Assembly: GCA_016214605.1 (NCBI GenBank)
Contig: JACROD010000017.1
Location: 1,183 to 65,182 of the forward strand
Length of the DNA stretch: 64,000 nt
Direction of reading: 5' to 3'
From: Candidatus Kaiserbacteria bacterium
GTDB taxonomy: Bacteria > Patescibacteriota > Minisyncoccia > Phycocordibacterales > UBA2100
Part shown: positions 5,828 to 35,414 of the stretch, piece after piece
How positions within the stretch are numbered: the stretch's first letter is position 1
Layout: each line of letters opens with the position of its first letter
The notes under the pieces: generated by a model
Seen by the model: the letters and a program-made list of their open reading frames with translations, nothing else
Database searches by the model: none
What the model was told of the DNA's origin: nothing
Translations under genes and position numbers: made by a program

Positions 5828-6529
5828 ATGAACGGAACGGATACCGTCTTTGGGTCGTTTGGCGTGATCGCGCAGTTTTTTGCACACGCGACTTTCCAAT
5901 GGCTGCCGGGTTCGATCAGTACCGCTTTTAGTCCCGGCGAGCCGGGGAGCCTCATACCGCCGATAGCGCCGGTCAGTAATCCGGTCGGTTTTGGGGAGAT
6001 GATCGGCTTCCTCAATCAGACATCTCTGGCGAGCACGCAGTATCCTTTGTATCAAAAATGGATCAGCTTCGTTGTGTTTTCGACGCTCGTCTCGCTCTGT
6101 CTCATCGCCTTTATCATCTATTGTTCGATGCGGATCAAGCAGATCAGAGCAAACGAGGAAGAAAAATTCGCCGCCTCAGCGCATACAATCACGTCGCAAG
6201 ACGTGTCGCGTACGCAGATGCGCTGGCACCGGATCACCGAACAGATCCACAGCGACGGCGAACAAAACTGGCGCCTCGCTATTCTCGAAGCGGACATCAT
6301 GCTCGGCGAACTGCTTGATGTACTCGGGTATCGCGGCGAGACGATGGGGGACAAGATGCGCAATGTCGAGCGTGCGGATTTCAATACGATAGACATGGCG
6401 TGGGAGGCACATCGCGCACGCAACAAAGTCGCGCACGAAGGCACGAGTCTCCTCTTGAACGCGCGCGAGGCACGCCGCGTTATCGCACTCTACGAACGGG
6501 TGTTTCGGGAGTTCCAATTCATCGAATAG
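5828..6529 (+). CDS. Membrane-anchored hypothetical protein with a HEPN-like C-terminal domain
   Basis: A predicted TM helix (WISFVVFSTLVSLCLIAFIIY) is followed by a soluble domain ending in AWEAHRARNKVAHEG, which carries an R-x4-H HEPN-type motif. The family assignment is tentative. Confidence 0.4.
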   Translation: MNGTDTVFGSFGVIAQFFAHATFQWLPGSISTAFSPGEPGSLIPPIAPVSNPVGFGEMIGFLNQTSLASTQYPLYQKWISFVVFSTLVSLCLIAFIIYCSMRIKQIRANEEEKFAASAHTITSQDVSRTQMRWHRITEQIHSDGEQNWRLAILEADIMLGELLDVLGYRGETMGDKMRNVERADFNTIDMAWEAHRARNKVAHEGTSLLLNAREARRVIALYERVFREFQFIE

Positions 6530-6595: not shown

Positions 6596-7927
6596 TTGAG
6601 CGGCGCTATGGACAACCTTCATGATGATGGATCGCAGGTCATACCTCAGGGAGACCTTAGGCCCCGTCCACAAATAAATTCTACAGTTGTGGACGGTGCA
6701 CAAAGGGCTCTAACCACAAATAACGAGTACGTTATTTGTGGAAGACCCCTTAGGTGGGTCGGGACCGCCTTGATACTCGTGTCGATCATTATGCGTGCGT
6801 TCTCGTATCCGGTCACGACATCCGACTATACGGGTTTTTTGAGCAACTGGTTCGCTGTGCTCGCGATGCATCCCGGCCTCACCGCATTTCAAACCGTCTT
6901 TTCGGACTACACTCCGCTGTATCTCTATTTCTTGAAGGCGCTCACTTTTATTCCCGTATCGAGTCTCTATAGTATCAAGACGCTCACGCTGTGTTTCGAC
7001 ATTGTGATCACGGTCTTCGCCGTCTTGATCGTGCGCGCCGCTCAGAAAGGAGCGAGCATAGGTCAGCTGTATCTCTCCGGAGCGATCATGTTCGCTATCC
7101 CGACGCTTTTGATCAATAGTTCGCTGTGGGGGCAATCTGATGCGGTGTACGCGACAGGATGTATTGTGAGCCTGTACTACATACTCAAAGATCGCCCACT
7201 GCTTGCCGTACTCGCATTTGGATTTGCCGTCAGCGTCAAACTTCAGGCGATATTCTTTCTCCCGGTCCTGATAGGATACTTTATGCGCGCGAACGAAAAG
7301 TCGGAATGGTCGATCGTGCGGCTTGGGTATCTGCTTGTCGTCCCGGCGTTCTTCGTACTCACACTCGTGCCGGCGTGGCTCTCGGGGGGATCATTGTCGG
7401 CGCTCGCATTGACCTATGTGCGCCAGTCGGGGGAATATACTGATCTCAACATGTCTTCGCCGAGCGCGTTTGCGTTTGTACAACAGCATCTGCTCTCCAT
7501 ATCGGCACAAAACATACTCCTCTTCGTCGGGATCGGTGCGGCCGCTTTGTGCGCGCTCGGCATCGTCGCGGTAATGTCTTGGACGTCCGCTTCGACATCC
7601 CGTCGGATGATCATCATGCTCGCGTGCCTGTCCGCGCTCGCCGTGCCTTTTTTCTTGCCGCGAATGCATGAGCGGTACTTCTACCTTGCCGACATGTTCA
7701 GCGTACTCTATGCACTTTCGTATCCGCGCATGTGGTATGTACCCGCATTGATCGTATCGGCGTCACTTCTTTCATATGTGCCGTATTTGTCGGGGCAGGT
7801 CGCGCTGTTCTCAAGTCTACAGATCGATCTGAGAATCCCGGCGACGGTATTAGGATTGACGCTCGCGACCCTTTTCTATCAGCTCTTCGCATCGCAGCGA
7901 AGACAAGCAAAATTGTCGAGTGTATGA
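6596..7927 (+). CDS. GT-C fold integral membrane glycosyltransferase (DUF2029/GT87-like mannosyltransferase family)
   Basis: 443 aa with about 11 predicted TM helices. It has an acidic/aromatic first-loop motif (TSDYTGFLSNWF) typical of polyprenyl-phosphate-sugar dependent GT-C enzymes, and lies next to gtrA. Confidence 0.5.
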   Translation: MSGAMDNLHDDGSQVIPQGDLRPRPQINSTVVDGAQRALTTNNEYVICGRPLRWVGTALILVSIIMRAFSYPVTTSDYTGFLSNWFAVLAMHPGLTAFQTVFSDYTPLYLYFLKALTFIPVSSLYSIKTLTLCFDIVITVFAVLIVRAAQKGASIGQLYLSGAIMFAIPTLLINSSLWGQSDAVYATGCIVSLYYILKDRPLLAVLAFGFAVSVKLQAIFFLPVLIGYFMRANEKSEWSIVRLGYLLVVPAFFVLTLVPAWLSGGSLSALALTYVRQSGEYTDLNMSSPSAFAFVQQHLLSISAQNILLFVGIGAAALCALGIVAVMSWTSASTSRRMIIMLACLSALAVPFFLPRMHERYFYLADMFSVLYALSYPRMWYVPALIVSASLLSYVPYLSGQVALFSSLQIDLRIPATVLGLTLATLFYQLFASQRRQAKLSSV

Positions 7928-8337
7928 CCGATGAACACCGAGAGATGATTCGTCAATTCTTCACTTTTGCGGTCATTGGCGTCGCAAATACAGCCATAGA
8001 CTTCGCGATCTATGGCCTGCTGACGCGCCATGTCGGCGTGTTCGACTACCGCACGCCGGGGCGCTATGTAGCAAACGTCATTTCTTTCGGCATCGCGACC
8101 ACATTCAGTTTCTACTGCAATCGCATCTGGACATTCCGCCGTCGCTATCCTGCGCAGATGACGGAGGTGGCACGTTTCTATACGACGACCGTGAGCGGTT
8201 TGCTGTGGAACACCGCGATCTTGTTTGTTTTGAGCAGTATGGCCGGGATCAACGATCTCATCGCCAAGCTCTGTGCGACATTGTTTAGCATGATCTGGAA
8301 TTTCTTTTTCAAAAAATACTGGGTGTTTGCGAAGTAA
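7924..8337 (+). CDS. gtrA: GtrA family membrane protein (polysaccharide synthesis / flippase-associated)
   Basis: 137 aa, 4 TM helices. Motifs FFTFAVIGVANTAIDFAIYGLL and FYCNRIWTFRR match the GtrA-like family. The start overlaps the upstream stop (ATGA). Confidence 0.7.
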   Translation: MTDEHREMIRQFFTFAVIGVANTAIDFAIYGLLTRHVGVFDYRTPGRYVANVISFGIATTFSFYCNRIWTFRRRYPAQMTEVARFYTTTVSGLLWNTAILFVLSSMAGINDLIAKLCATLFSMIWNFFFKKYWVFAK

Positions 8338-8340
8338 GGA
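8312..8340 (+). repeat. Direct repeat copy 1 (3' end of gtrA including its stop codon)
   Basis: aaaaaatactgggtgtttgcgaagtaagga is repeated with 2-3 mismatches at 8704-8735. Confidence 0.8.
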
Positions 8341-8703
8341 TTATGTACACAAAGTATCTTTCCCTTCTGCTCAAACGCGCCAACGTACCCGTCGTGATCT
8401 TGGATGAATTCGCTCGCAAACTTCGTCTGAATCCTCAAAAATAAAAAAACCCCCGGATACGCCGGGACGTATCAAGGCCCCCCTTCTTGTTTATAAAGAC
8501 ATAATATATCCTGTTTCATTCGTGTCAATGGTTTGGCGTGTTAGTAACGGGATTTCAGGGTATCATCTGCGAGAGCATAGACGAACCTTCGATAGGCAAC
8601 AAGATTTTTAGATGAGTACTTTGTGTGGATGTATAATTATTACCACATGGAAACTTACCAACCAAAAAACCAAGAATATTCTTTCATAAGAAAATCATAT
8701 CGC

Positions 8704-8735
8704 GAAAGATACTGGGTGTTTGCGAAGTAGGGATT
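8704..8735 (+). repeat. Direct repeat copy 2 (duplicate of the gtrA 3' end)
   Basis: gaaagatactgggtgtttgcgaagtagggatt. It flanks a roughly 360-bp low-GC non-coding segment and abuts the HEPN/MNT pair. Confidence 0.8.
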
Positions 8736-9063
8736 ACACCACGATACCGTGCGCGCGGATCTCTTCTATAACGGGAGAGTTGCTTTGTTCCAGGTCCTCA
8801 GGCGAAAGCGGGTACGGTTCGATGCGGATATCCGCAAAGCGCGTCTTTTTCCAAAGAGTCTGCATCTCTTCCACATCGTCATGGCCGAACTGCGGCGACA
8901 CGACGGCAAGATCAATATCACTGCGAGGATTTGCCAGTCCTTTTGCGTATGAACCAAACAGAATCATCTTCTGCACGGGAATGCCGGAGGACTCCACGAC
9001 GCTTCGAAAACGAGCGGCGCTTTGCAGGACGTCTTGATCTATTGTTATTGTGTTTTGAGCCAT
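8734..9063 (-). CDS. Minimal nucleotidyltransferase (MNT) antitoxin, Pol-beta superfamily
   Basis: 109 aa. Motif LFGSYAKGLANPRSDIDLAV (GS...DxD) matches the polymerase-beta type nucleotidyltransferase fold. It overlaps the upstream HEPN gene by 19 nt. Confidence 0.75.
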   Translation of the reverse strand: MAQNTITIDQDVLQSAARFRSVVESSGIPVQKMILFGSYAKGLANPRSDIDLAVVSPQFGHDDVEEMQTLWKKTRFADIRIEPYPLSPEDLEQSNSPVIEEIRAHGIVV

Positions 9064-9431
9064 ACAAGGATATGTTCGGTTTCGCGCAGATAGTTTTCCG
9101 TATATTCCGTGGTCGCCTTCTTGTAAAATTGCGACTTGAATTCATCATAGCGGCCTTTGATGTTGAAGGTGTTGATTTCCGCCAAGCTCTCTTGCATGGT
9201 ATCGGAAAGCTGCAATCCGGCGTCAGACGCCAGGCGTTGCAGGTTGTGATCATAGGCGGCGTTTGCGTTTGTCTTGCGGACAACGAGCGCCTTCAAGAGT
9301 TTCTCAATCGCAAGATGACAGAAAAAGAGTGCGTAGGTATTGCGGTTTGAGGCAAGAAGCATCTGCGCGACCGCGAAGTCCTCACCGCTCTTCTCGCGCC
9401 AGAATTGCTGGATGTGTTCAGTATCAAACAT
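9045..9431 (-). CDS. HEPN domain protein (toxin partner of MNT; HepT-like)
   Basis: 128 aa. HEPN-like helical protein (HLAIEKLLKALV ... NIKGRYDE) in the classic HEPN-MNT two-gene arrangement. Confidence 0.7.
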   Translation of the reverse strand: MFDTEHIQQFWREKSGEDFAVAQMLLASNRNTYALFFCHLAIEKLLKALVVRKTNANAAYDHNLQRLASDAGLQLSDTMQESLAEINTFNIKGRYDEFKSQFYKKATTEYTENYLRETEHILVWLKTQ

Positions 9432-9681
9432 ATAATGTCATACTACCGCGTTTCCATGGATTTATCCATGCCTCCTCGTGTTGCGCCCAGTGTTCACCAA
9501 AAGATCACGAATGCAAACGTGATCTTTTTCTCTTGGTACGAATCAGTGCGAAAAACAAGGCTCGGAATCTTCATGAGATTTGCTCTTGCGCGATTATTTT
9601 TGCCGGGCAAAAATAGTGAAGGTTTTATGAATCGGGATGGAGCGATTCGTCGCGCCGTTCCATAGACAATAAAAAATAAGT

Positions 9682-11445
9682 ATGTATTCAAAAGCAAAAA
9701 TTATCGACCTACAGAATGTGTCTCGCGTCTTCATCGTGTGTCTCACGGCAATCGTACTGTCGTTCGTGCACCCCGGCATCGCGAGCGCGGCTTCGGTCAA
9801 TCCTTGGTGGCCGGTAGACGGCGCGCACATGACGGGCGTTCAGCCGTTCAAGGCCGAGCTCTCGGGCGTCTCGGTCGATCAATACCAAATGTACTGGCAA
9901 GTCGACGGCGGCGGGCAGGTCGCGATGGACTCCAACTACACCGGCTATCCGCACAAAGAAGCATCGGTCAACGTCACGCTGTGGACATGGCGCGGGGCGG
10001 GGCCGTACACGGTGACCTTCGTCGCCAAGCAAAACGGCGCGATAGTCGCACAGCAATCGGTCTCGATATACAACGACGCATACACGCCGACTGTGACGAC
10101 ACCCATTGCGCCGACCCCGGCGCCTGCACCCGCTTCATCTGCACCGGTAGTATCGATCACGCAACCGGCGCCTGTACCGGCTCCCACTCCAGCCCCGACG
10201 CAAGTACAGATCAATGTCTGGTGGCCGACTGCAAACGCGACCGTGAGCGGCGTGCAACCCTTCAAGGCGATGATCGCCGGTATGGATACTTCGACGTATA
10301 GCATGTACTGGCAAGTCGACGGCGGTACCTTGAGCGTCATGAGCAACGACAACACCGGGTATCCCCACAAGGAAGCTTCGGTCAATGTCGGCGCGTGGAA
10401 TTGGAATGCGAGCGGGAACTACATGGTCACCTTCACCGCGAAAAACGCAAGCGGAAGCGTGATCGGACAGGTGAGTATTCCGGTACACATTCCCGTCACG
10501 ACGATCACCCAGTCTCCGCAAAATGCTACGGCGGGCACGGTCTCGCAACCAGCGACGACCTATAGCGGCAATCCGCTTGCAGGCATGACATTCTGGGTCA
10601 ATCCCCATTCGTCTGCCGCCTCACAAGCAGCCGCATGGAGCTCAAGCGACCCGACCGATGCGGCGCTCATGCGGATGCTCGCGGCACAGCCGACTGCGCA
10701 ATGGTTCGGCGGTTGGAATAGCAACATCCAAAACGACGTGCACGCCACGGTCGCGAGCGCACAAAGCGCCGGTGCTGTGCCTGTGCTTGTTGCGTACAAC
10801 ATCCCGTTTCGTGATTGCGGCGGATATTCTGCCGGAGGAGCCACAAGCTACGCAGCGTATACGAGCTGGATACAATCCTTCGCGGCAGGTATCGGCAGTG
10901 CCAAAGCCGTCGTGATCCTCGAGCCCGATGCGCTCGCGACGATCTCGTGTCTCTCGTCGAGCGATGCACAGACGCGGCTCACACTCCTCACCAATGCGGT
11001 AACGACGCTCAAGACAAACAGCAACACCAAAGTGTACATCGATGCCGGACACACGGGCTGGATCGATCATGCGCAGATGGCCAATGAACTGCGATCAGCA
11101 AATGTCGCTCACGCAGACGGATTCGCGCTCAACGTCTCCAACTTCGGTTGGACGAGCGACAACACCGCCTATGGCACTCAGATCTCCAATGACCTCGGCG
11201 GCGCGCACTTCGTGATCGACACCTCGCGCAACGGCCTCGGATCCACGCCCGATAATCAATGGTGCAATCCGGCGGGTCGCGGTATAGGTACGCATCCGAC
11301 CACGGCGACCGGCAATTCGCTGATCGATGCGCTCCTCTGGCTCAAAGTTCCCGGCGAATCCGACGGCAATTGCAACGGCGGTCCAAATGCCGGCACTTGG
11401 TGGTCCTCCTATGCCGTCGGTCTAGCCCAGCGAGGCGTGCAGTAA
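9682..11445 (+). CDS. Secreted glycoside hydrolase family 6 (endoglucanase/cellobiohydrolase-type) with two N-terminal tandem beta-sandwich-like domains
   Basis: Signal peptide. Two roughly 100-aa repeats (WWP...GVQPFKA...MYWQVDGG...GYPHKEASVNV...) are separated by a Pro/Thr/Ala linker. The catalytic domain carries GH6 signatures YNIPFRDCGG and VVILEPDALA, plus WLKVPGESDG. Confidence 0.8.
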   Translation: MYSKAKIIDLQNVSRVFIVCLTAIVLSFVHPGIASAASVNPWWPVDGAHMTGVQPFKAELSGVSVDQYQMYWQVDGGGQVAMDSNYTGYPHKEASVNVTLWTWRGAGPYTVTFVAKQNGAIVAQQSVSIYNDAYTPTVTTPIAPTPAPAPASSAPVVSITQPAPVPAPTPAPTQVQINVWWPTANATVSGVQPFKAMIAGMDTSTYSMYWQVDGGTLSVMSNDNTGYPHKEASVNVGAWNWNASGNYMVTFTAKNASGSVIGQVSIPVHIPVTTITQSPQNATAGTVSQPATTYSGNPLAGMTFWVNPHSSAASQAAAWSSSDPTDAALMRMLAAQPTAQWFGGWNSNIQNDVHATVASAQSAGAVPVLVAYNIPFRDCGGYSAGGATSYAAYTSWIQSFAAGIGSAKAVVILEPDALATISCLSSSDAQTRLTLLTNAVTTLKTNSNTKVYIDAGHTGWIDHAQMANELRSANVAHADGFALNVSNFGWTSDNTAYGTQISNDLGGAHFVIDTSRNGLGSTPDNQWCNPAGRGIGTHPTTATGNSLIDALLWLKVPGESDGNCNGGPNAGTWWSSYAVGLAQRGVQ

Positions 11446-11447
11446 GA

Positions 11448-12946
11448 TCACTGACGCGCGAGCGGCGTGTCGTATCGCAACTGATACACGTACAGATCAA
11501 GGTCGCGGGAGAAATGCTCAGTGCCGATCCGGCGATAATGCTGATCGAAGTATGATTTAATCGTCTGTTCGTATCCTTGATCGTAGCTCAAGACGAGCCA
11601 TGCTTTCTGATAGCCGTCCGTGAGCGTAGCGACTTGTGCGGGGAGCTGTGCAGGAGAGAATGCGGGTATCGGACCGGTATCGTAGCGGTTCCATATCGGC
11701 AGTGTCGCGAGTGTCGCGGGAGAATGATAGTAGTATTCTATCGGATAGATCGTAAACGGCGTGGAGAGTATGATCGTATCTTGCGGTCCGGCATGTTCGT
11801 TGATGTATGTCACTACCTGCCGATAATTCTCTTTGACCGGTGTCGCGGGGCTCTGGATCTGTATCACGAGCCCCGCGACCATGACGATCGCGACGCTCCA
11901 CCGCGCCGCTTGCGCCAATCGCGGCGGATATGCATCGAAAAAGTGCGCCAACACCAGATACAATGACGGAACGGTAAAGATGAGGTAGCGGCTGACGAAT
12001 ACGGGCGTTAAGACGAAACTTCCGATAAAGAGGGCGGCGAACGAGCATATGATAGTGTACAAGAAATACTCGGTCTCGAAACGGAATCTTGCGCCGCGTC
12101 GCAGCGCGAGAAATACCAAGATCACGGTGATCGGCCAGAGCGATACGAAGATCGTGTTGAGTGTATCGTCTTGAAATCCGAACACGAACTGGGAGAATGT
12201 ATTGAAGAGATCGACGGTCGTTGGAGGCATCAAGAGGGGAAGTTGCATCCCAGCTTCTTTCAGTGCGTACACATACCACACCCATGGCGCGAATGAAAAG
12301 ACGAGTACGGCCGCGACGATGCTGAATCGCGCCAACGACCGCGGAGGAAACAACGAGCGGTGCAGGAAATAAAATACGGCTTGCGCCGCCAAGCTCAAAA
12401 AGAACAGATAGTGCGTATAGATGCCGAGCATCGCGGTCGTCCCGTAGCCGATCCATATGCGAGCGCTGCCTTGCTTGATGATCCGCAGGAAGAAGAATTG
12501 ATTGAGTATGATGAGCAGAGTGAAGAGCGCATACATGCGTATCTCATTGCCGTACCAATTCATGAATGGAGAGAGGCCGAAGAGGACCGACGCATACAGT
12601 CCCGTCGAACGGGAATACGCAAGGCGTCCCAGTATATAGATTGCGGGGATCGACAGGATATAGAACACGAGCGAGAGCGAGCGTGCGGCGGCGACAGAGC
12701 TGCCGAACGCGACGCGCCACATATGCAGCAGTATGTGGAAGAGCGGCACATGCACATCCTTGGCGACGATCATCAGTAGCGCGGACGGACTCCGGCCCGA
12801 TTCCCAGAGGCTCTGTGCTTCATCGAGTCGCAAGCTCTGCGGCAAGAGAAAGAAGACCGAGACGGCGGCGCAAAAGATCATGGTCGACATGAGTATGATG
12901 ACTGTGCTCCAAAAATGCCGTCTTTCTCGCGGCGGATTAATCTGCA
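11448..12946 (-). CDS. GT-C membrane glycosyltransferase of the ArnT/PMT (GT39/GT83-like) family
   Basis: Multi-TM protein. The first periplasmic loop has LRLDEAQSLWESG (DE motif), and the C-terminal soluble domain is present. The ORF-track start (13064) overlaps the upstream gene, so the start is probably the ATG at 12946. Confidence 0.6.
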
Positions 12947-14532
12947 TATGAACTTTGCGTTTGCATAAGCTGTCCCGGGCTGAGGATATCTTCTCTCCGC
13001 AAGGCTTCCTCGGCGGATCTTTGTACGGCGACGGCGGCGTTTGCTTTCTCCGGCCATGACGCATAGATAAAGGGTATAAAGATCGTCACGTTGAAGAGGG
13101 CCCACATGCTGTTGTTGAGGAGCGATGCAGTCACTCCTTCTCGGTCGTATGCGACCACTATCCCGACCAATGCGAGCGCGCAGTAGAACAAGTGCCATTT
13201 GACGATCGGAAGGAAGTTTCCTTCGAGCGCTCGTTTCGACGTGACAAGAAAATCATTTTTCCTCCCGGTGAGTGCCGCGAAAAACGCCGCCGTGTGAATG
13301 CTGAACGATCCCATGGAAAAACCGAGCGACCGGAAGGTGAAGTGTGCGTTCGATACGCGCTGAATGACATAGAATGTCAGGAAGATATAGGGAAGAAAGA
13401 TGGCGGCGAGAAGCATGCTATTCATCTGTACCGCGACCGCTCCCGTATAAAAGAATGCGATCGGCAAGAGCGCATCGATCATAACGACGATGCCGGAAAG
13501 GTAGAAACTTGCCGAAGAGAGATATTGTATGCGCTGCGCTCCGGTGAGGCCGCGCATAAAGAGCGGATTGTAGCGGAAAATGACGTCGAATGCGCCGCGC
13601 GCCCAGCGGAACTGCTGTGTCGAATATGAGCGCAGATCTTCCGTCGCGAGACCCTCTGCCAGTACTTCGGGCACGTATACCGATCGATACCCTCGCGCAT
13701 GCATAAGCAGGCCGGTGACGAAGTCTTCGGCGATACTGTCGGTCTTCATGCCGCCGACCGTCGCGAGCGCCGCACGTGAGATGACCATGTTGGTGCCGCA
13801 GAGGGTCGCGCTATTGAGGCGATTCTTGCCCTTGCAAATGGGCCCGAAGAAAAGCTCCTGCTGTTCCCATGAGCCGTTGGTGAGGTGACTCTTTTCGAGA
13901 TTCTTGTAGAACTGCGGCGTCTGCACGAACGCGACCTTATCATCGACGAAATACGGCACGGTCTTTGCGAGGAAGTCGGCATGCGGCACATGATCCGCGT
14001 CGAAGATGGCGATGAGCGGGCTTCGCGTGAGCGACAGCGCGTGATTGATGTTGCCGGCCTTCGCGCCTCCGGGTATCTGTCGCGTGATGCACGAGACACC
14101 GAGACGCGCGGCCAATGTCTCCATGTCGCGCCAATTCTTTTTGCCGGCGACGTACCCATCATTCAAGATATATACCTTGAACGATGGGTACGTCATCTGC
14201 TTGGCGGCGCGCACCGTTGCTTCCATGATCTCGATGGATTCGCCCGCAGCGGTGATATATACGTCGACCGAAGGACGCAGCAGCGTATTGCGCGGTGCGA
14301 TGTGGCGGGTGTCCCATACCGTGTAGAGGAACGTGAGCACTTGCCACAAGTGAAACGCCTCACCCGCGATGAGAAAACCGAACAGTATGCGATTTCCCGG
14401 CATGAAGAAAAAGGTGATCGCTATAAAATAAGTGATCGCCATGATCGCGTTGAAGGCAAGAAGCACGCGGGGCGATTCCGTCCTGAGAAAAGAATGTTTC
14501 CGGTCGCTCATGTCGTAAACATATTTCATAGG
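12937..14532 (-). CDS. Processive family-2 beta-glycosyltransferase, cellulose synthase (BcsA/CesA)-like, no PilZ domain
   Basis: Motifs DGY, FDADHVP (DxD), ATEDL (TED) and QQFRWARG (QxxRW), with TM helices on both sides. The likely start is MKYVYDMSDRK at 14532. The longer ORF-track start overlaps the GH8 gene. Confidence 0.75.
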   Translation of the reverse strand, partial: PMKYVYDMSDRKHSFLRTESPRVLLAFNAIMAITYFIAITFFFMPGNRILFGFLIAGEAFHLWQVLTFLYTVWDTRHIAPRNTLLRPSVDVYITAAGESIEIMEATVRAAKQMTYPSFKVYILNDGYVAGKKNWRDMETLAARLGVSCITRQIPGGAKAGNINHALSLTRSPLIAIFDADHVPHADFLAKTVPYFVDDKVAFVQTPQFYKNLEKSHLTNGSWEQQELFFGPICKGKNRLNSATLCGTNMVISRAALATVGGMKTDSIAEDFVTGLLMHARGYRSVYVPEVLAEGLATEDLRSYSTQQFRWARGAFDVIFRYNPLFMRGLTGAQRIQYLSSASFYLSGIVVMIDALLPIAFFYTGAVAVQMNSMLLAAIFLPYIFLTFYVIQRVSNAHFTFRSLGFSMGSFSIHTAAFFAALTGRKNDFLVTSKRALEGNFLPIVKWHLFYCALALVGIVVAYDREGVTASLLNNSMWALFNVTIFIPFIYASWPEKANAAVAVQRSAEEALRREDILSPGQLMQTQSSYAD

Positions 14533-15785
14533 CTTGCTTGATCTAGTGATAATCGGGGAAGGGATGCGGCGATGTTTGGGAGGAGGTCGTTGTACAATGC
14601 GATGCCGAACCATGCCCAGTTGTCGCCGTAGTACGACATGTCGGTATTCCACGTATTGTTATCGGGGCTGAACAAGCTTTCCAGCTTCGTCGTGTACACG
14701 ACGGGCGCGAGTGAGGGATCGACCGTCATGAAATATCCGATCGTGCCGCCGTACATGGCCGGCGATTCATGCGCTGTGCCGGTCGCCGTCGATCCGTCGT
14801 GCGCGTATGTCGCGTACAGAAAGCTGTTTTTGTTCCATTCTTCCGAAAGGAACGAGAATCTCTTGAGTATGGCTTGGTCGTGCGAGTCGTGGAACCATTG
14901 CCAGTCGAGCGTAAGCCGCCACGGCAGCCGCAAGGCGTTGTATCCGAAATCGGTCGTGGTCTCGGGAGTGTCATGCAAAGGTTCGATCGCGCCGGTCTGC
15001 TTGTGGATGCGTATCCAGTCGGGTGGCAGATCGGCGCTCTTTTTCTTGTCGAGGGTGCTATCCGATGCGCGCGCGATCAGATCATATGAACTATCGACAA
15101 GCTCCAGCCATGGGTGTGCGGTGTCGATCCGGGCGAAAATGCGAAAAGCAGCCGGATTCAAATAGGACGGATTGACCGCCGCCCATGGAGACGTCGAAGT
15201 CTTCTCAAGGCTGTCGGCTGTGAGATATGGTGTCCCTTGTATGGTGATGACCTCGGCATTCCAGATAGCCGCGATGGTCGTGCTCGCACTCTCGAGGTAC
15301 GCGGGATCTTGCCAGCGTGCATATGCGAACACAAGCGACAACGCGATATCCACGTCTGCATCAGATGCGCTCGTCATTCCGCCTTGGTCGGCGAGTATTC
15401 CGTAGGTGCCGTCGCCCTGCTTTCCGTAGAGCCATGCAAACACATGATCGGGGCGTTCGAGCGCGCGGTGCGTCCAACCCCACGAAGTGTCGAATGTCTC
15501 CTTGTCTCCCATCCAGACGGCGCGCATCATCGTATAGCTTTGTCCTTCGGACGTTGTTGTATTGTTGTGGCCTGGATCGATCGTGCGTCCGTCGCTCGCA
15601 ACATACACTTTTTTGTAACTGTTCCACAATGCGGACAACATCTGTGGAGGCGAAAAGACGAGCGCTTTACTCCCTTGATGAACGCTAAAATAGCCGCCTC
15701 CGGCCACGCCAGCGATCATCACGGCGCCCAAAAGACAGTTCGCGACTCGGGATCTTTTCATGTTATATGCGGGCCTGTTCATCAT
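14526..15785 (-). CDS. Glycoside hydrolase family 8 endoglucanase (BcsZ-like)
   Basis: N-terminal TM/signal. Has TSEGQSY and the GH8 signature ASDADVDIALSLVFAYARW. Confidence 0.8.
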   Translation of the reverse strand: MMNRPAYNMKRSRVANCLLGAVMIAGVAGGGYFSVHQGSKALVFSPPQMLSALWNSYKKVYVASDGRTIDPGHNNTTTSEGQSYTMMRAVWMGDKETFDTSWGWTHRALERPDHVFAWLYGKQGDGTYGILADQGGMTSASDADVDIALSLVFAYARWQDPAYLESASTTIAAIWNAEVITIQGTPYLTADSLEKTSTSPWAAVNPSYLNPAAFRIFARIDTAHPWLELVDSSYDLIARASDSTLDKKKSADLPPDWIRIHKQTGAIEPLHDTPETTTDFGYNALRLPWRLTLDWQWFHDSHDQAILKRFSFLSEEWNKNSFLYATYAHDGSTATGTAHESPAMYGGTIGYFMTVDPSLAPVVYTTKLESLFSPDNNTWNTDMSYYGDNWAWFGIALYNDLLPNIAASLPRLSLDQASL

Positions 15786-16549
15786 AGCGATCTTGGGTTG
15801 GCGTGAACCATATCTTGGTGCGGAATGGACGGCGCAATAAGAGAAGCCGAACCCAGTTCACTCATATAAAGGGACAGAAGTTCGCGGATCGCGCGGAAGA
15901 TGACCGACGGTTTTGCTCCGGTCGGCGATCCATAGATGCGTGGTAAATGAGAGACCGGTACTTCTTTGATCGGGATGCCGCGCCGCATCAATCGGACCAA
16001 AAGTTCCGCATTGACCATCGCGCCGTCGGACGTGATCCGTATTTGTTTGATCACGGAGCGCTCGAATAGCTTGAACGCGCAATCAATATCGCGTATCCGC
16101 AGGCCGAAAAAGATCCTATTGAGAATATTCCAGCCCTTTGCATTGACCAGCCGCATGAACGAATCGCGCCGCGGTGCACGGTATCCTGTTACAACACAGT
16201 ACTCAGGCACATGGATCACCAAATGCTCCAGTTCCAAGAGGTCGAATTGCATATCGGCATCCGTGAAAAACACGTATTGCATGCGCGCTTCTTGGAATCC
16301 TGTCTTGAGCGCGGCACCATAGCCCTGGTTTGTCGGGTGATGCACGGTGCGGACCTCCGTATGGCGCTGGGCGAGCAGATCGGCGAGTGCGGGAGTTGCA
16401 TCGGTGCTCCCGTCGTCGATAATCACTATTTCATACGCTTTCACATACGGGCATTGCCTCGCAACGTCAATCGCGCGCTCCACCATGGAGACGATATTCC
16501 GCTCCTCATTGAAGGTGGGAAAGAAGATACTGATCGATATTTGTCGCAT
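15782..16549 (-). CDS. Family-2 glycosyltransferase, polyprenyl-phosphate sugar synthase (DPM1/GtrB-like)
   Basis: 255 aa. Motifs IVIIDDGSTDAT and FTDADMQFD (DxD). It is the first gene of a minus-strand operon that continues into the GH8, BcsA-like and GT-C genes. Confidence 0.75.
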   Translation of the reverse strand: MRQISISIFFPTFNEERNIVSMVERAIDVARQCPYVKAYEIVIIDDGSTDATPALADLLAQRHTEVRTVHHPTNQGYGAALKTGFQEARMQYVFFTDADMQFDLLELEHLVIHVPEYCVVTGYRAPRRDSFMRLVNAKGWNILNRIFFGLRIRDIDCAFKLFERSVIKQIRITSDGAMVNAELLVRLMRRGIPIKEVPVSHLPRIYGSPTGAKPSVIFRAIRELLSLYMSELGSASLIAPSIPHQDMVHANPRSL

Positions 16550-16727
16550 ATATTCCCGAGTGTATGCGTCGGATCATTAAGTTTGGCTGAAGTATGCATG
16601 GCTCATTTGGATTCTGAATTTAAAATCAAAACATGAACGGCGGCTTTCAGGTGTTCATTAACCCAAAACTCACGTGTGCTCGTTCATATTGCGACCATTA
16701 TCGCGTAATTATTTTTCATGATCGAAT

Positions 16728-19358
16728 ATGACCACTAAACACCTGCATCTCATGATCGCCTTCGCGGCCCTTATCAGCGTGCTCTTTTCATGTGCCGGCA
16801 CTTCATACGCGGCCGCGGTCGTGCCTGCCGGTTTCCAGATCAATACGATCGTGAGCGGATTGAATCTCCCGACGTCATTCACGTTTGCTCCCGACGGCCG
16901 CATGTTTATCACCGAAAAATCGGGAACCGTACGGATATTCAAAAACGGCCAGCTTCTCTCGACCCCTGTCATACGCTTACCCGACTTGAATGATTTTGGC
17001 GATCGGGGACTTGAATCGATCGCACTCGATCCCGATTTCTCCCACAACGGCTATATGTATGTGGCATATACGTATGAGAACACGCCGGGGCAAAATTACA
17101 CCGGACCAAAGACCGGGCGCATCGTGCGATTCACGGTTGTCGGCGACACGGCCGATTTCAACAGTCGCGTTGTGATATTGGGCACGGTCGGAGGTGATGC
17201 GGCACATCCTTCGTGTTCGACGTTTGCCATAACGAACGATTGCATCCTCTCGGACGCCAGTACCCATTCGATGGGGGATATGCACTTCGGGCCCGACGGC
17301 AAGCTCTATGCGAGCCTTGGCGACGGTGCAGGGTACACCGGTGTGGACCCGCTCGCTCTCTTTGCGCTCGACACCCGTGCGCTTGCCGGCAAAATCGTGC
17401 GCATCAATACCGACGGCACCGGTGTCTCGGACAATCCATTCTATACCGGCAACGCCCATGACAACCAGTCGAAGATATGGACGTCTGGTCATCGCAACAG
17501 CTACCGTTTCAGCTTCCGATCGACCGACGGGAAGCTCTTTTTCGGCGAAGTGGGGTGGTCCACGTGGGAAGAGATAGACATCGGCGTCAAAGGGGCCGAC
17601 TACGGCTGGCCATGCCGTGAAGGATATGTCGCGACTGCATACAATTGCACGCCGCCGACTTCATGGACCGACCCTATCTACGTATTCGATCATACTACCG
17701 GGACGGCATCGGTGATCGGTGGCATTTTCCCTGCGGCAGGCGTGTATCCTGCGCAATACACCGGCAATTACTTCTTTGGCGATTACAGCAACGACCGCAT
17801 CAAGCGTATGGTGCTCAACGGCGACGATACCGTCGCGTCGGTCGAGGATTTCATCACGGGCGCCGGCGGGCCGGTCGATTTCGTTCCCGGTCTCGACGGC
17901 ACGATCTACTATTCTTCGATCAATACCGGCCAGATCAGGCAGATCGCGTTTTCAAACGCGAACCGTCCGCCGGTCGCAAGAGTGAGCGCGAATCCGATGA
18001 CCGGTGTGCCGCCGTTTTCCGTGCATTTCTCGGGTGCCAATTCGAGCGATCCCGACAACGATCAGATCACCTATCGGTGGGATTTCGGCGACGGAAGCAC
18101 TGTATCTACTGCGGTGAGTCCCGATCATGTCTATTCATCGTTGGGCACGTACACCGCGACACTCACCGTGACGGATTCTCATGGGGCTGTCGGTACTGCG
18201 ACCGCCGGTATCATCGTGACAAACACCCCGGTGATCAATGCGCTTCCGCATGTGACGCAGACGGTCCAATCTCCCGTGCCGCCCAATGCCGTGGGGCGCG
18301 ACGTGCTGGTCACGAGCACGATAACGAACAGCGGCGCCGCGAGTCCGTTCATCATTGATTTTGAGATCTATAATACGAGCGGACAGCTAGCCGCGCAGAA
18401 GATCTATAACGGGCAAACGATCCCCACGGGAGGACATGCCGACTATGCGATCGACTGGTTTCCCGGCACGGTCGGCGACTACACGGTCAAAGTCGGATTG
18501 TTCAAGGCCGGCTGGGTGGGCATGTACGAGTGGAATGATCAAGCGCTCTTGCTGCATATAGTCGATCGCGCCGCGACAGAATCCTCCTTTGCACATCAGG
18601 GTACGACACTGTCGCCCGCATCTCCCGCGGTTGGGAATGCGGATCTGATCACCAGCACGATCACCAATACCGGTGGCGCAGGATCGGCCTTGGTGGATAT
18701 GGAAGTGTACAAGGATGGGATCAAGGTCGGACAGAAATTCTTTAACGATCAGGTCTTTGCCGCAGGACAATCAAGAGATTTCTCGTATTCATTCACACCG
18801 CTTGCCGCTGGCACGTATACGGTTTCGATCGGCGTGTTCAAGCCGGGCTGGACGGGTATCTATGCATGGTTCGATCAGGTAGCCGCGTTCAGTACTATGA
18901 GTGCGGATCAGAGTGTGTCTATTTATCAGGATGCGCTGGCACCGGGCTGGTACAATTGGTCGTGGGGCAGTACGCAGGATTTCTCCGACACCTCACTCGT
19001 ATTCGCGGGAACGAATGCAATGAGGGTCGCCTATGATGCGCCGTGGGGCGGTCTCTTCCTCCATCACGCGGGCATCAATACATCCGGCAAGAGAGCGCTC
19101 TCCTTCGTTATCGCCGGATCAGGCGGCGGCGGGCAAAATCTCCAGATCTATACCTTCGACAGCAACGGCGTACAATCGTCGGTCAAGAACCTCTCCGCGT
19201 ATGTGCCTGATGGGACCATAATTGCAAATACCTGGAAACAGGTCTCCATCCCGCTTGCGGATATCGGTGCGGATAACAAGGCGATAAGCGGTATTATCGT
19301 TCAGTCGGCAGGTGCGGCAAGCGCCCGCGTCGATATCGACGCGATGCAAATACAGTAA
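16728..19358 (+). CDS. Large secreted multidomain protein: PQQ-dependent sugar dehydrogenase-like beta-propeller, PKD domain, two repeated ~100-aa Ig-like domains and a C-terminal CBM-like domain
   Basis: Signal peptide. SGLNLPTSFTFAPDGRMFITEKSGTVRIF matches the soluble glucose/sorbosone dehydrogenase family. PKD signature PPFSVHFSGANSSDPDNDQITYRWDFGDGS ... YTATLTVTD. Two paralogous repeats (ITSTITN[ST]G ... FKAGW / FKPGW). Confidence 0.65.
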   Translation: MTTKHLHLMIAFAALISVLFSCAGTSYAAAVVPAGFQINTIVSGLNLPTSFTFAPDGRMFITEKSGTVRIFKNGQLLSTPVIRLPDLNDFGDRGLESIALDPDFSHNGYMYVAYTYENTPGQNYTGPKTGRIVRFTVVGDTADFNSRVVILGTVGGDAAHPSCSTFAITNDCILSDASTHSMGDMHFGPDGKLYASLGDGAGYTGVDPLALFALDTRALAGKIVRINTDGTGVSDNPFYTGNAHDNQSKIWTSGHRNSYRFSFRSTDGKLFFGEVGWSTWEEIDIGVKGADYGWPCREGYVATAYNCTPPTSWTDPIYVFDHTTGTASVIGGIFPAAGVYPAQYTGNYFFGDYSNDRIKRMVLNGDDTVASVEDFITGAGGPVDFVPGLDGTIYYSSINTGQIRQIAFSNANRPPVARVSANPMTGVPPFSVHFSGANSSDPDNDQITYRWDFGDGSTVSTAVSPDHVYSSLGTYTATLTVTDSHGAVGTATAGIIVTNTPVINALPHVTQTVQSPVPPNAVGRDVLVTSTITNSGAASPFIIDFEIYNTSGQLAAQKIYNGQTIPTGGHADYAIDWFPGTVGDYTVKVGLFKAGWVGMYEWNDQALLLHIVDRAATESSFAHQGTTLSPASPAVGNADLITSTITNTGGAGSALVDMEVYKDGIKVGQKFFNDQVFAAGQSRDFSYSFTPLAAGTYTVSIGVFKPGWTGIYAWFDQVAAFSTMSADQSVSIYQDALAPGWYNWSWGSTQDFSDTSLVFAGTNAMRVAYDAPWGGLFLHHAGINTSGKRALSFVIAGSGGGGQNLQIYTFDSNGVQSSVKNLSAYVPDGTIIANTWKQVSIPLADIGADNKAISGIIVQSAGAASARVDIDAMQIQ

Positions 19359-19450: not shown

Positions 19451-20722
19451 ATGTCTTTTCGCCAGATTTTACAGGATATTCGCGATACCATCCGTGTCAT
19501 CATGACGCTGACGTGGGAGCGCCGCAATGTCTTCAAGGAGCTGCATGAGAAGAATGCCGAACTCCGGCGGGCCCTCACCAAGACGCGGCTAGAGGATCAT
19601 GCAAAAAGCGAATTTCTCGCAATCCTTGGACATGAATTGCGCAACCCGCTCGCGCCCATCATCAGCACTCTGGAGCTGCTCCAGGTCGATGAGAAGGATC
19701 ATGATCGAGCGTCACTGATTTCAGACGCGCAACAACAGGCGGCGATCCTGAAGCGTCTGCTCGACGACCTGCTCGACATATCCCGCATCACGCATGGAAA
19801 ATTCGATCTCAAGAAAGAGCCGCTGACGCTGCAAACGGTGCTTGAGCAGTCGATCGCGAGCATGAAGCCGTTTCTGGAAGACCAGCAGATCGCCTTTTCG
19901 GTCTCATTGCCGTCCGAACCATTGTGGGTATACGGCGATCCTGCGCGCCTTGTACAGATCTTCAACAATCTACTCCATAATGCTGGCAACTGCACACCGC
20001 ATCACGGGAGTGTGACGCTTGCTCTCAAGCAAGAGGGTGCCGAAGGCGTCATACAAGTCGCTGACACGGGCGTAGGTATTGATCCCGCGCTCCTCGATAG
20101 TATCTTTGAAGCGTTCATAAGCATCAATCCAGCCTCCCAGGTACGGACCGGACTTGGGATCGGATTGTCTTTGGTCAAACGCTTGACCGAGCTGCATGGG
20201 GGCCGAGTACAGGCACAGAGCCGAGGCAAAGGTTTCGGGAGTACCTTTACCGTACGATTGCCTCTCTTGAAACATGATTCACCGTTGAGGGTTGCCACTG
20301 CGGCCGGATCGGGCCAGATGAAGCCATCGACCGTCTTCAAGATCCTCCTGGTCGATGACAATGAGATCGCGGCGCGCGGTATGGGGAAGCTCCTCGAGTA
20401 TAAAGGGCATCAGGTCTGCTTGCGGTATACGGGAAAGAGCGCGCTTACAGCCATTCCCGTTTTCCAGCCGGATGTCATATTGCTCGATATTGGACTGCCC
20501 GATATCAGCGGATATGATGTGGCGCGTCAGGTACTGCGTGCGACATCGCAAGCGCCTCGTCCGGTATTGATCGCGCTCACCGGATTCGGACAGGTGCGGG
20601 ATAAGAAAGCCGCCGCAGAGGCGGGCATGGAATACCATCTCACCAAACCCGTCAGCATCGCCGATATCGAGGCGATCCTTGCGCGCATCGCGTCCGAGCG
20701 ACGAGACCGCAAACATTCATGA
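19451..20722 (+). CDS. Hybrid sensor histidine kinase (HisKA + HATPase_c + C-terminal receiver)
   Basis: H-box FLAILGHELRNPLAPI. N/G boxes (LLHNAGNCT, GVGIDPALL, GLGIGLSLV). Receiver domain KILLVDDNEIA ... LLDIGLPDISG ... K. Confidence 0.8.
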   Translation: MSFRQILQDIRDTIRVIMTLTWERRNVFKELHEKNAELRRALTKTRLEDHAKSEFLAILGHELRNPLAPIISTLELLQVDEKDHDRASLISDAQQQAAILKRLLDDLLDISRITHGKFDLKKEPLTLQTVLEQSIASMKPFLEDQQIAFSVSLPSEPLWVYGDPARLVQIFNNLLHNAGNCTPHHGSVTLALKQEGAEGVIQVADTGVGIDPALLDSIFEAFISINPASQVRTGLGIGLSLVKRLTELHGGRVQAQSRGKGFGSTFTVRLPLLKHDSPLRVATAAGSGQMKPSTVFKILLVDDNEIAARGMGKLLEYKGHQVCLRYTGKSALTAIPVFQPDVILLDIGLPDISGYDVARQVLRATSQAPRPVLIALTGFGQVRDKKAAAEAGMEYHLTKPVSIADIEAILARIASERRDRKHS

Positions 20723-20835
20723 AAACTTCACGATACATTTTGCATAATGCACGGGACGGAATAGTCCACGGGGAGGTCGTTATCGTCATTGATGCTCTGA
20801 CCAATTTAACAATGGTATAATTACAATAGGATTTT

Positions 20836-21510
20836 ATGAAAGTACTTCTTGTGGAAGATGACGCGAAGCTCGCGGATTCGATCAAGCGCGGTCTTGAGCT
20901 TGAAGGATACGCGGTCGATGTTGTGCCCGATGGAAAGAAGGCGCTCACGCGCGTGTCGCTTCATCGTGATGATTATGACATCGTGATCCTCGATCTCATG
21001 CTTCCGTCGATGGACGGCCTCGCCGTATGCAAAGAGATGCGGGCGAAGGACATCACGCTGCCCGTACTGGTCCTTACGGCGCGCTCCGAGGTCGAGAGCA
21101 AGGTGAACCTCCTTCTTTCAGGAGCCGACGATTACCTCGTGAAGCCGTTCTCATTCGCCGAACTCTCAGCGCGTTTGCAGGCGCTTCTGCGGCGGCCGCA
21201 TGAAAACCTGCCGGAGATCCTGGAGGCAGGCGATATCAAGCTCGATCTGGGCACCCGGCGTGTATCGCGCGCGGGCACCACCATTCCGCTCACGCTCAAG
21301 GAATTCGGATTGCTCGAGTACTTCATGCGCCACTCGAATCAGGTCGTGAATCGGGAGGATATTCTTAATCATCTTTGGGATTTCAATTATGTCGGATTTA
21401 GCAACGTGGTGGACGTCCATATCAAAAATCTTCGACGCAAACTCGGCGGGAAAAGCGGCGATGGAATCCTCGAAACGGTTCGCGGGATCGGATACCGGCT
21501 CCGCGCATAG
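20836..21510 (+). CDS. OmpR-family response regulator (REC + winged-helix DNA-binding)
   Basis: MKVLLVEDD ... DIVILDLMLPSMDG ... C-terminal trans_reg_C region (LTLKEFGLLEYFMRH ... VRGIGYRL). Confidence 0.85.
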   Translation: MKVLLVEDDAKLADSIKRGLELEGYAVDVVPDGKKALTRVSLHRDDYDIVILDLMLPSMDGLAVCKEMRAKDITLPVLVLTARSEVESKVNLLLSGADDYLVKPFSFAELSARLQALLRRPHENLPEILEAGDIKLDLGTRRVSRAGTTIPLTLKEFGLLEYFMRHSNQVVNREDILNHLWDFNYVGFSNVVDVHIKNLRRKLGGKSGDGILETVRGIGYRLRA

Positions 21511-21523
21511 GCCGAAGTCTGAT

Positions 21524-21745
21524 ATGCTACAGAAACAATTCATCGAGAATGCCGCGCATGATCTGCGCACGCCGCTTTCGGTTATCCGGATGAACGCCGA
21601 GATGGCACTCTTGTCTTTACATGAAGGATCGGAACTGAGATCGACGTTTTTGGGCATTATCGAAGAGGTCGATCGTATGTCGAAGATGCTGAGTGAGCTT
21701 GTATCTCAGGCGGCGTTTTCTGACACGCAACGCGATCAAGTATAA
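21524..21745 (+). CDS. Orphan HisKA (DHp) domain-only protein, a possible remnant of the cognate sensor kinase
   Basis: 74 aa. The H-box ENAAHDLRTPLSVI is followed by the second DHp helix and then a stop. No HATPase domain is present. It lies directly downstream of the OmpR-like regulator. Confidence 0.45.
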   Translation: MLQKQFIENAAHDLRTPLSVIRMNAEMALLSLHEGSELRSTFLGIIEEVDRMSKMLSELVSQAAFSDTQRDQV

Positions 21746-23729: not shown

Positions 23730-23819
23730 TGCCGCCAAGCGTGCATACGGTGGTGACCCCAGGATATCGCCTTACGACCCCGCTTCCTAGAATGTCCATT
23801 TTCATATACATCTCATGAC

Positions 23820-25364: not shown

Positions 25365-25406
25365 GTAACACTAAAGACCATAAAACAAAGAACATATACG
25401 ATACCT

Positions 25407-34570: not shown

Positions 34571-34657
34571 CTAGCAGTCGCTCGCGGCCAATGGTCGCAC
34601 GAAGGTTCTTGAGGCCCACATAAATGGTTATAGTAATGTACTGTCATGGTATAATTT

Positions 34658-35409: not shown

Positions 35410-35414
35410 CATAG

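Follow-up and report, generated by a model that had tools for sequence, protein, structure and literature searches.

A cellulose-type synthase without a PilZ domain, clustered with a GT-C enzyme in Candidatus Kaiserbacteria and related bacteria

Introduction

Bacterial cellulose synthesis (Bcs) systems were reviewed in 2021, and types I-III together with the wss, ccs and cslA-glxA-cslZ systems were set out there; enzymes of the GT-C type are nowhere mentioned in that review. The locus described here occupies positions 9682-16549 of a 64,000-nt stretch of DNA (the window) from Candidatus Kaiserbacteria bacterium, a member of the Candidate Phyla Radiation (CPR; assembly GCA_016214605.1, contig JACROD010000017.1). 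It carries genes for a BcsA-like processive synthase of glycosyltransferase family 2 (GT2), a GT-C enzyme, glycoside hydrolases of families GH8 and GH6, and a second, DPM1-like GT2. With the proteobacterial Bcs systems (types I-III) it shares the processive GT2 with its D, DxD, ED, QxxRW and FxVTxK motifs, the BcsA fold, and a BcsZ-like GH8 gene in the operon. It differs from them in that the synthase has no PilZ domain and two N-terminal helices instead of four, in the GT-C partner, and in the monoderm CPR host.

The remaining enzymes recall three-component extracytoplasmic glycosylation, a concept set out in two articles (PMC11127046, PMC7389260). The same parts, namely a DPM1-like GT2, a GtrA-family protein and a GT-C enzyme, are present in GtrA/GtrB/GtrC, CsbB/GtcA/YfhO, PpgS/Rv3632/Rv3779 and GacI/J/K/L. 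Full-text literature searches, of incomplete coverage, turned up neither a cellulose synthase coupled to a GT-C enzyme nor one from CPR bacteria, and an earlier account may exist. From the evidence presented below it is quite probable that a cellulose-type synthase is functionally coupled to the GT-C enzyme and to a lipid-sugar route.

Organization of the locus

The locus consists of five open reading frames (ORFs), every one of which scored above its Pfam gathering score. They are listed with their Pfam matches:

15782-16549, minus strand: DPM1-like GT2, first gene of the operon, 255 aa (PF00535, 2.8e-27)
14526-15785, minus strand: BcsZ-like GH8 endoglucanase, 419 aa (PF01270, 1.1e-44)
12937-14529, minus strand: BcsA-like processive GT2 synthase, 530 aa (Glyco_tranf_2_3, 1e-28; Cellulose_synt, 1.2e-14)
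11448-12947, minus strand: GT-C enzyme of the PMT_2 type, 499 aa (PMT_2, 1.6e-7)
9682-11445, plus strand: secreted GH6 endoglucanase, convergent to the operon, 587 aa (PF01341, 1e-68)

Translational coupling links the four genes of the minus strand. As read from the sequence, the GT2/GH8 and GH8/synthase junctions are ATGA stop-start overlaps, and the synthase and GT-C reading frames share 11 nt; the stop codons of the GT-C gene and the convergent GH6 gene are separated by 2 nt. An earlier note, prepared from the DNA letters alone, had proposed this four-gene minus-strand operon with a convergent GH6 gene, and had named a DPM1/GtrB-like GT2 as its first gene, a GH8 enzyme with the canonical signature, and an ArnT/PMT-like GT-C enzyme. 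The arrangement and these identities were upheld by the ORFs, their junctions and the family assignments given here and below, and the GH8 and GH6 assignments, for which the note had asked whether thresholds of hidden Markov models would be passed, did pass them. A promoter and terminator scan of positions 8300-17000 gave counts no better than those of shuffled sequences and no clear operon boundaries.

The synthase

The synthase lies in a GTG-initiated ORF of 571 aa (12937-14652, minus strand), with a likely start at 14529 that yields 530 aa. The identical NCBI entry (MBI5003960.1, 100%), from a contig of 65.9 kb, has 524 aa and carries generic annotation only; the true protein is almost certainly the one of 530 aa (or 524 aa, as in that entry), not 571 aa.

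Its best NCBIfam match was CelA (TIGR03030, 1.4e-81, profile positions 89-563 of 714) at 274.6 bits, which is under the equivalog cut-off of 699.1 bits, while PgaC and NodC reached 58 and 47.5 bits, respectively. The closest solved relatives by sequence were the BcsA proteins of Rhodobacter (4hg6/4p00, 8e-54, residues 118-567) and E. coli. When the fold of a synthase orthologue was compared, BcsA ranked first (9b8v, 8.7e-26, root-mean-square deviation 3.4 Å), followed by plant CesA, CslF6, cyclic glucan synthase and hyaluronan synthases; the BcsA-BcsG3 complexes 9b8v and 9fmz were among its structural matches. The profile scores and the nearest relatives, both by sequence and by fold, place the enzyme with cellulose synthases and not with the chitin, hyaluronan or NodC types, against which the earlier note had wished its assignment to be checked.

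The motifs LNDG, GAKAGNIN, FDADH, VQTPQ, IAED and QQFRW and the gating loop FLVTSK (FxVTxK) were kept in 74 orthologues, and the membrane topology was that of two plus four transmembrane helices. The D, DxD and QxxRW motifs listed in the note are thus present (LNDG, FDADH, QQFRW); its TED motif is not, the residues being I-A-E-D, in which ED is kept and T is replaced by A.

The absence of PilZ and BcsB, also asserted in the note, was borne out within the window. No PilZ match was obtained for the synthase with Pfam at E<=0.01, the last 35 residues were unconserved among the 74 orthologues, and the CelA match stops at profile position 563 of 714, so that it leaves out the PilZ part. Among the about 49 window proteins scanned with Pfam there was no match to BcsB or BcsC and none to GGDEF, EAL or PilZ domains; BcsB and BcsC were also not seen in the related loci inspected. 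Because the synthase is without a PilZ domain, it is presumably not gated by cyclic di-GMP (c-di-GMP) through such a domain. In some distant relatives of the synthase a Ser/Thr protein kinase domain precedes the enzyme at its N-terminus (P0330), or the cluster includes a gene for a kinase (L086, 15288-17147); control in those relatives may thus depend on phosphorylation instead of c-di-GMP.

Conservation of the cluster in CPR bacteria

When each GTDB species was scanned through a single genome, 80 related loci (L numbers) were obtained, and their synteny was determined by tblastn. Nearly all were labelled Patescibacteria/CPR, with a few other or generic labels such as 'uncultured Gammaproteobacteria'. 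The lineages included Adler-, Kaiser-, Nomura-, Taylor-, Yonath-, Wildermuth- and Doudnabacteria, WWE3, Levy-, Davies- and Blackburnbacteria, and Gracilibacteria.

GH8, synthase and GT-C genes were found together in all of the 73 loci with enough flanking sequence, the other 7 of the 80 being cut by contig ends, and this triad was spread over Parcubacteria, Microgenomates, WWE3, Doudnabacteria and Gracilibacteria. The GH8 gene adjoined the synthase gene in 76 of 80 loci. Where all three ORFs were complete (68 loci) they were on the same strand, in the order GH8-synthase-GT-C in 60 and GH8-GT-C-synthase in 8. A convergent GH6 gene was present in 34 of the 80 loci, all in Parcubacteria; it was missing from 46, including every WWE3 and Microgenomates locus. 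The conserved core consists of GH8, synthase and GT-C, and GH6 and the DPM1-like GT2 are lineage-restricted additions.

Three loci (L054, L058 and L064) come from metagenome-assembled genomes labelled 'uncultured Gammaproteobacteria', one of them on a contig of 1.57 Mb. Their synthases cluster with those of the Microgenomates type (Blackburn- and Levybacteria) and a second, divergent GH8 gene lies downstream; the labels look like placeholders.

Actinobacterial clusters and fusion proteins

The cluster was also found in cultured Actinomycetota. In Geodermatophilus sp. DSM 44513 (CP135963.1) the order is gtrA, GT2, GT4, GH8, synthase and PMT_2 GT-C, followed by a convergent GH6 gene, and in Quadrisphaera oryzae it is gtrA, GT2, GT4, GH8, synthase and GT-C. 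Identities to the window proteins were 47-49% for the synthase, 38-41% for GT-C, 39-46% for GH8 and 52% for GH6. The actinobacterial synthases nested inside the CPR radiation in a rough, midpoint-rooted neighbour-joining tree without support values, which suggests lateral transfer between CPR bacteria and Actinomycetota in either direction.

In two related loci, L018 and L041, the synthase and GT-C are joined in single proteins of 995-997 aa. A database was then queried with a synthase::GT-C fusion (matches bear P numbers). Twelve such fusions of CPR type (P0241-P0252) and about 20 from Actinomycetota (Gaiellaceae and others; about 30% identity, 1026-1232 aa) were obtained. Fusions with the other parts of the route were found as well: a synthase::GtrA protein (P0253, locus L082), encoded in an operon of GH8, GT-C, synthase::GtrA and GT2 with a convergent GH6 gene, and DPM1-like GT2::synthase proteins of ~900 aa (P0319-P0337), the N-terminal domains of which shared 37-43% identity with the GT2 encoded in the operons of Geodermatophilus, Quadrisphaera and L082. 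Each part of the GT2/GtrA/GT-C route is thus fused to the synthase in some lineage. PMT_2 genes still adjoin synthase relatives in distant clades (L086, L087).

The same search gave synthase::GH8 and synthase::GH26 fusions. In L087 a synthase::GH8 gene is overlapped by an upstream PMT_2 gene, the more distant synthase::GT-C fusions are paired with GH26 in place of GH8 or GH6, and synthase relatives are also fused to, or lie beside, enzymes of the GH26 mannanase family or GH5. This co-variation fits hydrolases that report the polymer made, and it is evident from the GH26 association that members of the superfamily can differ in the product they make.

The natural fusion P0241 (995 residues) was modelled using AlphaFold2, with a mean predicted local distance difference test (pLDDT) of 91.8 and a predicted template modelling score (pTM) of 0.87, a value that would be high for two modules of undefined mutual orientation. 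According to the helix order of the model, the C-terminus of the synthase and the N-terminus of GT-C would be cytoplasmic and the RLDE motif of GT-C, described below, would lie outside.

The GT-C enzyme

The GT-C ORF extends from 11448 to 13064 (minus strand) with a likely start at 12947. PMT_2 was the sole Pfam match of this protein (32.1 bits, cut-off 26.1), and its identical NCBI entry (MBI5003959.1, 100%) is named as a GT39 family member. About 11 transmembrane helices are followed by a C-terminal extracytoplasmic alpha/beta domain. An AlphaFold2 model (pLDDT 85.7, pTM 0.86) gave 31 Foldseek matches at E<=0.001, all of them GT-C enzymes (STT3, ArnT, PglB, AglB, ALG12, Pmt4, DPY19 and AftA), with TM-scores of 0.55-0.60 to ArnT and ALG12 (ArnT 0.58); at the level of the model, the GT-C fold is confirmed. 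Searches for solved relatives by sequence (phmmer, and a 56-sequence profile) gave nothing meaningful, with no solved PMT matched, and no Pfam match to the MIR and PMT_4TMC domains of GT39 PMTs was present in the protein.

Directly after the first transmembrane helix, the residues R40-L41-D42-E43-x-Q45-S46 were invariant or nearly so in 73 GT-C orthologues. V65-H66-x-P68, R89, W131, E135-x-R137-M-Y139, H179, R320-Y321, E373 and D390 were also conserved, and about 60 further invariant positions held down to 24-30% overall identity. The RLDE motif is at the position of the acidic pair in the first outer loop that serves catalysis and binding of the donor in PMT and ArnT-type enzymes. On this pattern of conservation the enzyme looks catalytically competent. 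The signature RLDE...VHxPLY was kept in the actinobacterial orthologues and in nearly all fusions checked (24-30% identity), and was not found in the second, unlinked PMT_2 gene of Geodermatophilus. The subfamily is a small one, with 139 clusters at E<=1e-30 among 25,312 PMT_2-like matches.

A proposed lipid-sugar route

The nearest NCBIfam neighbours of the DPM1-like GT2 were AglJ, ArnC, Dol-P-hexose transferase, PgfS and PpgS, though all matches were far below the equivalog cut-offs. The protein has no hydrophobic segment and is a putative polyprenyl-phosphate sugar synthase. Orthologues with 50-63% identity occupy the same operon position in close relatives. Two further genes of the window belong to this subject:

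7924-8337, plus strand: GtrA-like small membrane protein, a putative polyprenyl-phosphate-sugar flippase, 137 aa (PF04138, 1.8e-24)
6596-7927, plus strand: second GT-C enzyme, GT87/PimE-like (PF09594, 7.8e-6; 26.2 bits against a cut-off of 25)

The ATG of the GtrA-like gene overlaps the stop codon of the upstream GT87-like gene, which indicates translational coupling. Homologues of the GtrA-like protein are encoded between GT2 and GH8 in close relatives (GT2-GtrA-GH8-synthase-GT-C), and the window gene is regarded as part of the same logic as the operon. The GT87/PimE-like enzyme is loosely linked to the cluster, homologues with 44-48% identity adjoining it in L001, L002, L004, L005, L016 and L020.

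The hydrolases

The GH8 enzyme matched BcsZ (NF008305, 8.5e-37) at 126.9 bits without reaching the equivalog cut-off of 299, and its nearest solved relatives were BcsZ-type enzymes (7f81, 9b87, 3qxf and 1wzz). It carries the PROSITE-type signature ASDADVDIALSLVFAYARW together with the TSEGQ and PDW catalytic regions, and an N-terminal membrane anchor at residues about 14-32.

The GH6 enzyme is composed of a signal peptide, two tandem repeats of ~95 aa, Pro/Thr-rich linkers and a catalytic domain (residues 300-587). Its nearest solved relatives were M. tuberculosis Cel6 (1uoz, 3.6e-71) and T. fusca endoglucanase E-2, with which the catalytic Asp regions RDCG, EPDALA and PGESDG were aligned and found to be conserved. 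Family GH6 acts on beta-1,4 glycans, chiefly cellulose. The hydrolase that accompanies the cellulose-synthase-like gene of Streptomyces, CslZ, is also a GH6 enzyme; the presence of GH6 in such a locus is not unusual, contrary to what the earlier note had supposed.

The two GH6 repeats were 51% identical to each other (1e-34). The repeat domain (window 9790-10500, residues ~37-275) had no Pfam family and showed only weak similarity to PKD. Copies were found in other secreted proteins near related clusters (L016 3925-4206, L026 13919-14281, L030 15164-15445 and L050 11385-11660). Sharing of the repeat with the neighbouring GSDH-type protein (see below) was considered and rejected, the blastp comparison being insignificant.

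Neighbouring genes

A secreted protein with sugar dehydrogenase similarity lies next to the operon, from which it is divergent:

16728-19358, plus strand: secreted GSDH-type protein, resembling pyrroloquinoline quinone (PQQ) sugar dehydrogenases, with PKD and CARDB domains (PF07995, 1.3e-46; PKD_4, 6e-20; CARDB, 7e-8)

It has an N-terminal hydrophobic segment. A homologue with 59% identity occurs in L013 (14386-16860), and a GSDH gene is also found beside the Gaiellaceae synthase::GT-C fusion (L084, 14759-16186; 29% identity, 1.4e-41). The protein is a possible accessory of the cluster, its membership being uncertain.

A hidden cluster gene was sought in the 1.3-kb gap at 8338-9681 and rejected; this low-GC gap (46.5%) holds a toxin-antitoxin pair on the minus strand, formed by a HEPN protein (9045-9431, PF05168, 2.9e-15) and an MNT nucleotidyltransferase (8734-9063, PF01909, 3e-11). 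A conserved hypothetical membrane protein without Pfam match is encoded at 5828-6529 (plus strand), and in L007, L010 and L012 homologues of 33-41% identity lie within a few kb of the cluster. Directly downstream of the locus, at 19451-27872 (plus strand), is a run of two-component genes (a hybrid histidine kinase-response regulator, an OmpR-type regulator, a PAS-GAF kinase, a kinase with two receivers, a HAMP kinase and a lone receiver), in which no GGDEF, EAL or PilZ domain was present.

Elsewhere in the window, a type IV pilin-like protein is encoded at 534-1145 (plus strand; N_methyl motif, 1.9e-5). An ORF resembling LAGLIDADG homing endonucleases (34658-35344, PF14528, 7e-15) lies between tRNA-Met (34498-34571) and tRNA-Asp (35335-35410), its 3' end overlapping the start of the latter. 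A protein with a Bro-N domain, a kind common in phages, is encoded at 47487-48308 (plus strand, 7e-12). A reverse transcriptase (51103-52158, plus strand; RVT_1, 3.3e-23) is situated between unannotated ORFs. A retron, a group II intron or a diversity-generating retroelement could be its source, and the Rfam search of the window called no element.

Discussion

What was observed, namely the genes present, their families and folds, the conserved motifs, the synteny and the fusions, can be joined into the following scheme. The BcsA-like synthase would polymerize UDP-glucose and thread the chain through its own six-helix channel; UDP-glucose as the substrate, the beta-1,4 linkage and the identity of the lipid-linked sugar are presumed. 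GT-C would be an obligate and catalytically competent partner beside the synthase in the membrane, in the place taken by BcsB, CcsB or GlxA in other systems, its docking on the unfused synthase of the window being a prediction. At the cytoplasmic face the DPM1-like GT2 would load a sugar onto polyprenyl phosphate, and the GtrA-like protein would flip it. With the glucan as the likely acceptor, GT-C would place the sugar on the emerging chain at the outer face, giving a cellulose-like polymer decorated with side chains; less likely, it would act on the anchor of the glucan. The membrane-anchored GH8 enzyme would trim or release chains as BcsZ does, and the secreted GH6 enzyme would remodel the polymer. 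The chain of steps as a whole, that is, synthesis of a cellulose-like beta-1,4-glucan independent of c-di-GMP, decoration by GT2, GtrA and GT-C, and trimming by GH8 and GH6 in a monoderm CPR bacterium, is given a slightly better than even chance. The earlier note had suggested a non-canonical, possibly lipid-linked pathway, and that suggestion is strengthened by the constant adjacency of GT-C to the synthase, their fusion in some lineages, and the GtrA and GT2 fusions elsewhere.

Several observations weigh against decoration of the glucan by this route. A DPM1-like GT2 gene was within 8 kb in only 40 of the 80 loci and a GtrA gene in 29, so the supply of lipid-linked sugar is not always clustered, and both genes are absent from most WWE3 and Microgenomates loci. 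The window GT2 is only 24-29% identical to the GT2 of the actinobacterial and L082 clusters. The GtrA-like gene of the window lies 8 kb away, beside a different GT-C enzyme of the GT87-like kind. Partners may, moreover, serve the activity of a synthase alone, as with BcsB and GlxA, and conservation is no proof that GT-C acts on the glucan.

The alternative that survives best, though it is unlikely, is lipid-primed synthesis, in which the GT2 would make polyprenyl-phosphate-glucose, the synthase would extend this primer, and GT-C would ligate the glucan en bloc to a surface acceptor (wall polymer, lipid or protein), thereby anchoring it. The GT2::synthase fusions, which join both cytoplasmic catalytic domains in one protein, and the en bloc transferases STT3, PglB and AglB among the top Foldseek matches of GT-C would suit such a route, as would the need of CPR cells, as we infer it, for polymers retained at the surface. 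The single-sugar transferase ArnT matches the GT-C model about equally well, however, and a clustered or fused GtrA-type flippase is suited to monosaccharide decoration and not to a chain that the synthase itself exports. To our knowledge, the characterized BcsA and CesA enzymes require no lipid primer.

Somewhat less probable again is a chiefly structural function, in which GT-C would replace BcsB, CcsB or GlxA as an activator and stabilize the channel, its transferase activity being irrelevant to the glucan or lost. All studied bacterial cellulose synthases need a second membrane partner, non-homologous between lineages, no BcsB was recognized among the scanned window proteins, and an obligate complex would agree with the strict adjacency and the fusions. 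Against this reading, RLDE and dozens of loop residues stay invariant down to 24-30% identity, which is not to be expected of a pure scaffold, and the genes for supply of the donor (GT2 and GtrA) recur in the clusters or as fusions with the synthase.

The donor route might instead serve proteins. The GT39 name of the NCBI entry and the PMT_2 match, together with the long Pro/Thr/Ala/Ser linkers of GH6, would agree with GT39/PMT-type O-glycosylation of those linkers and of other surface proteins by GT-C and the DPM1-like GT2, with no part in the glucan. A GT39 enzyme is reported to be required for glycosylation of the secreted cellulases of Caldicellulosiruptor bescii (PMC6151902). GT-C is, however, beside or fused to the synthase also in the 46 loci without GH6, GH8 has no such linker, MIR and PMT_4TMC were not matched, and the enzyme forms a small subfamily of its own, so that this explanation is improbable. 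Equally hard to credit is a locus devoted mainly to degradation and uptake of environmental or host cellulose, with a synthase that makes an unrelated polymer (beta-1,3 or mixed-linkage glucan, or mannan): CPR genomes are rich in glycoside hydrolases, the GH26 and GH5 associations imply a varying product and the CelA score is below its cut-off, but GH8 has a membrane anchor, its gene is translationally coupled to that of the synthase, its nearest relatives are BcsZ enzymes of cellulose-synthesis operons, synthase::GH8 fusions exist, GH6 acts mostly on cellulose, and no sugar transporter was recognized in the operon with Pfam.

Decoration by GT-C can be extended to a wider proposal, which is offered tentatively and which we hold to be rather less likely true than not. 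The PilZ-less synthases of CPR bacteria and Actinomycetota might form a distinct class in which an active GT-C enzyme is an obligate, physically coupled subunit, fed by a GT2/GtrA shuttle, that glycosylates or anchors the nascent beta-1,4-glucan; the decorated cellulose might be a major envelope or host-attachment polymer of these episymbionts, the genes having been exchanged with actinobacterial hosts. Few envelope systems of several genes are shared by so many CPR lineages as this cluster is, and little is known of the surfaces of these bacteria or of how they attach to hosts; the nesting of actinobacterial genes in the CPR radiation hints at exchange with a phylum known to host CPR bacteria. 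The occurrence of the same cluster in cultured Geodermatophilus and Quadrisphaera, and the natural single-chain fusions, make genetics, biochemistry and cryo-electron microscopy feasible.

Comparison with known systems

The Streptomyces CslA-GlxA-CslZ system (with LpmP) has in common with the locus a Gram-positive-type envelope, a membrane partner other than BcsB and a GH6 hydrolase, and in both a gene for a secreted oxidoreductase is adjoining, GlxA in Streptomyces and the GSDH-type protein here. CslA differs in its copper radical oxidase partner, in the PilZ-like elements it keeps and in its stimulation by c-di-GMP, and its system has neither GH8 nor a GT2/GtrA pair; no domain of the GlxA copper radical oxidase type was found in the window or in the related loci inspected. 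The clostridial Ccs system (CcsA-CcsB-CcsZ-CcsH-CcsI) is likewise a monoderm cellulose operon that encodes an endoglucanase tethered to the membrane and a module for modification of the polymer, but its own features are the BcsB-like CcsB, a GH5 hydrolase and acetylating acyltransferases, and it lacks a GT-C enzyme. If the scheme proposed here is correct, GT-C would be a fourth and mechanistically different solution to the partner requirement, after BcsB, CcsB and GlxA.

The known three-component glycosylation systems decorate Wzy- or ABC-dependent glycans, teichoic acids and arabinogalactan, whereas in the present case they accompany a BcsA-like synthase in one cluster and are joined to it as fusions in various lineages. 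If true, a synthase-dependent pathway would for the first time be linked to three-component glycosylation by way of polyprenyl phosphate, and a new kind of modified cellulose would be predicted.

The nearest working analogy is the E. coli BcsA-BcsG complex that produces phosphoethanolamine (pEtN)-cellulose, in which a polytopic membrane enzyme is docked on the synthase and, drawing on a lipid donor, modifies the glucan outside the cytoplasm while it is being made. BcsG is a pEtN transferase of the alkaline phosphatase superfamily that uses phosphatidylethanolamine, and it has no homology to the GT-C enzyme of the locus; the latter has the GT-C fold, and a polyprenyl-phosphate sugar would be its expected donor.

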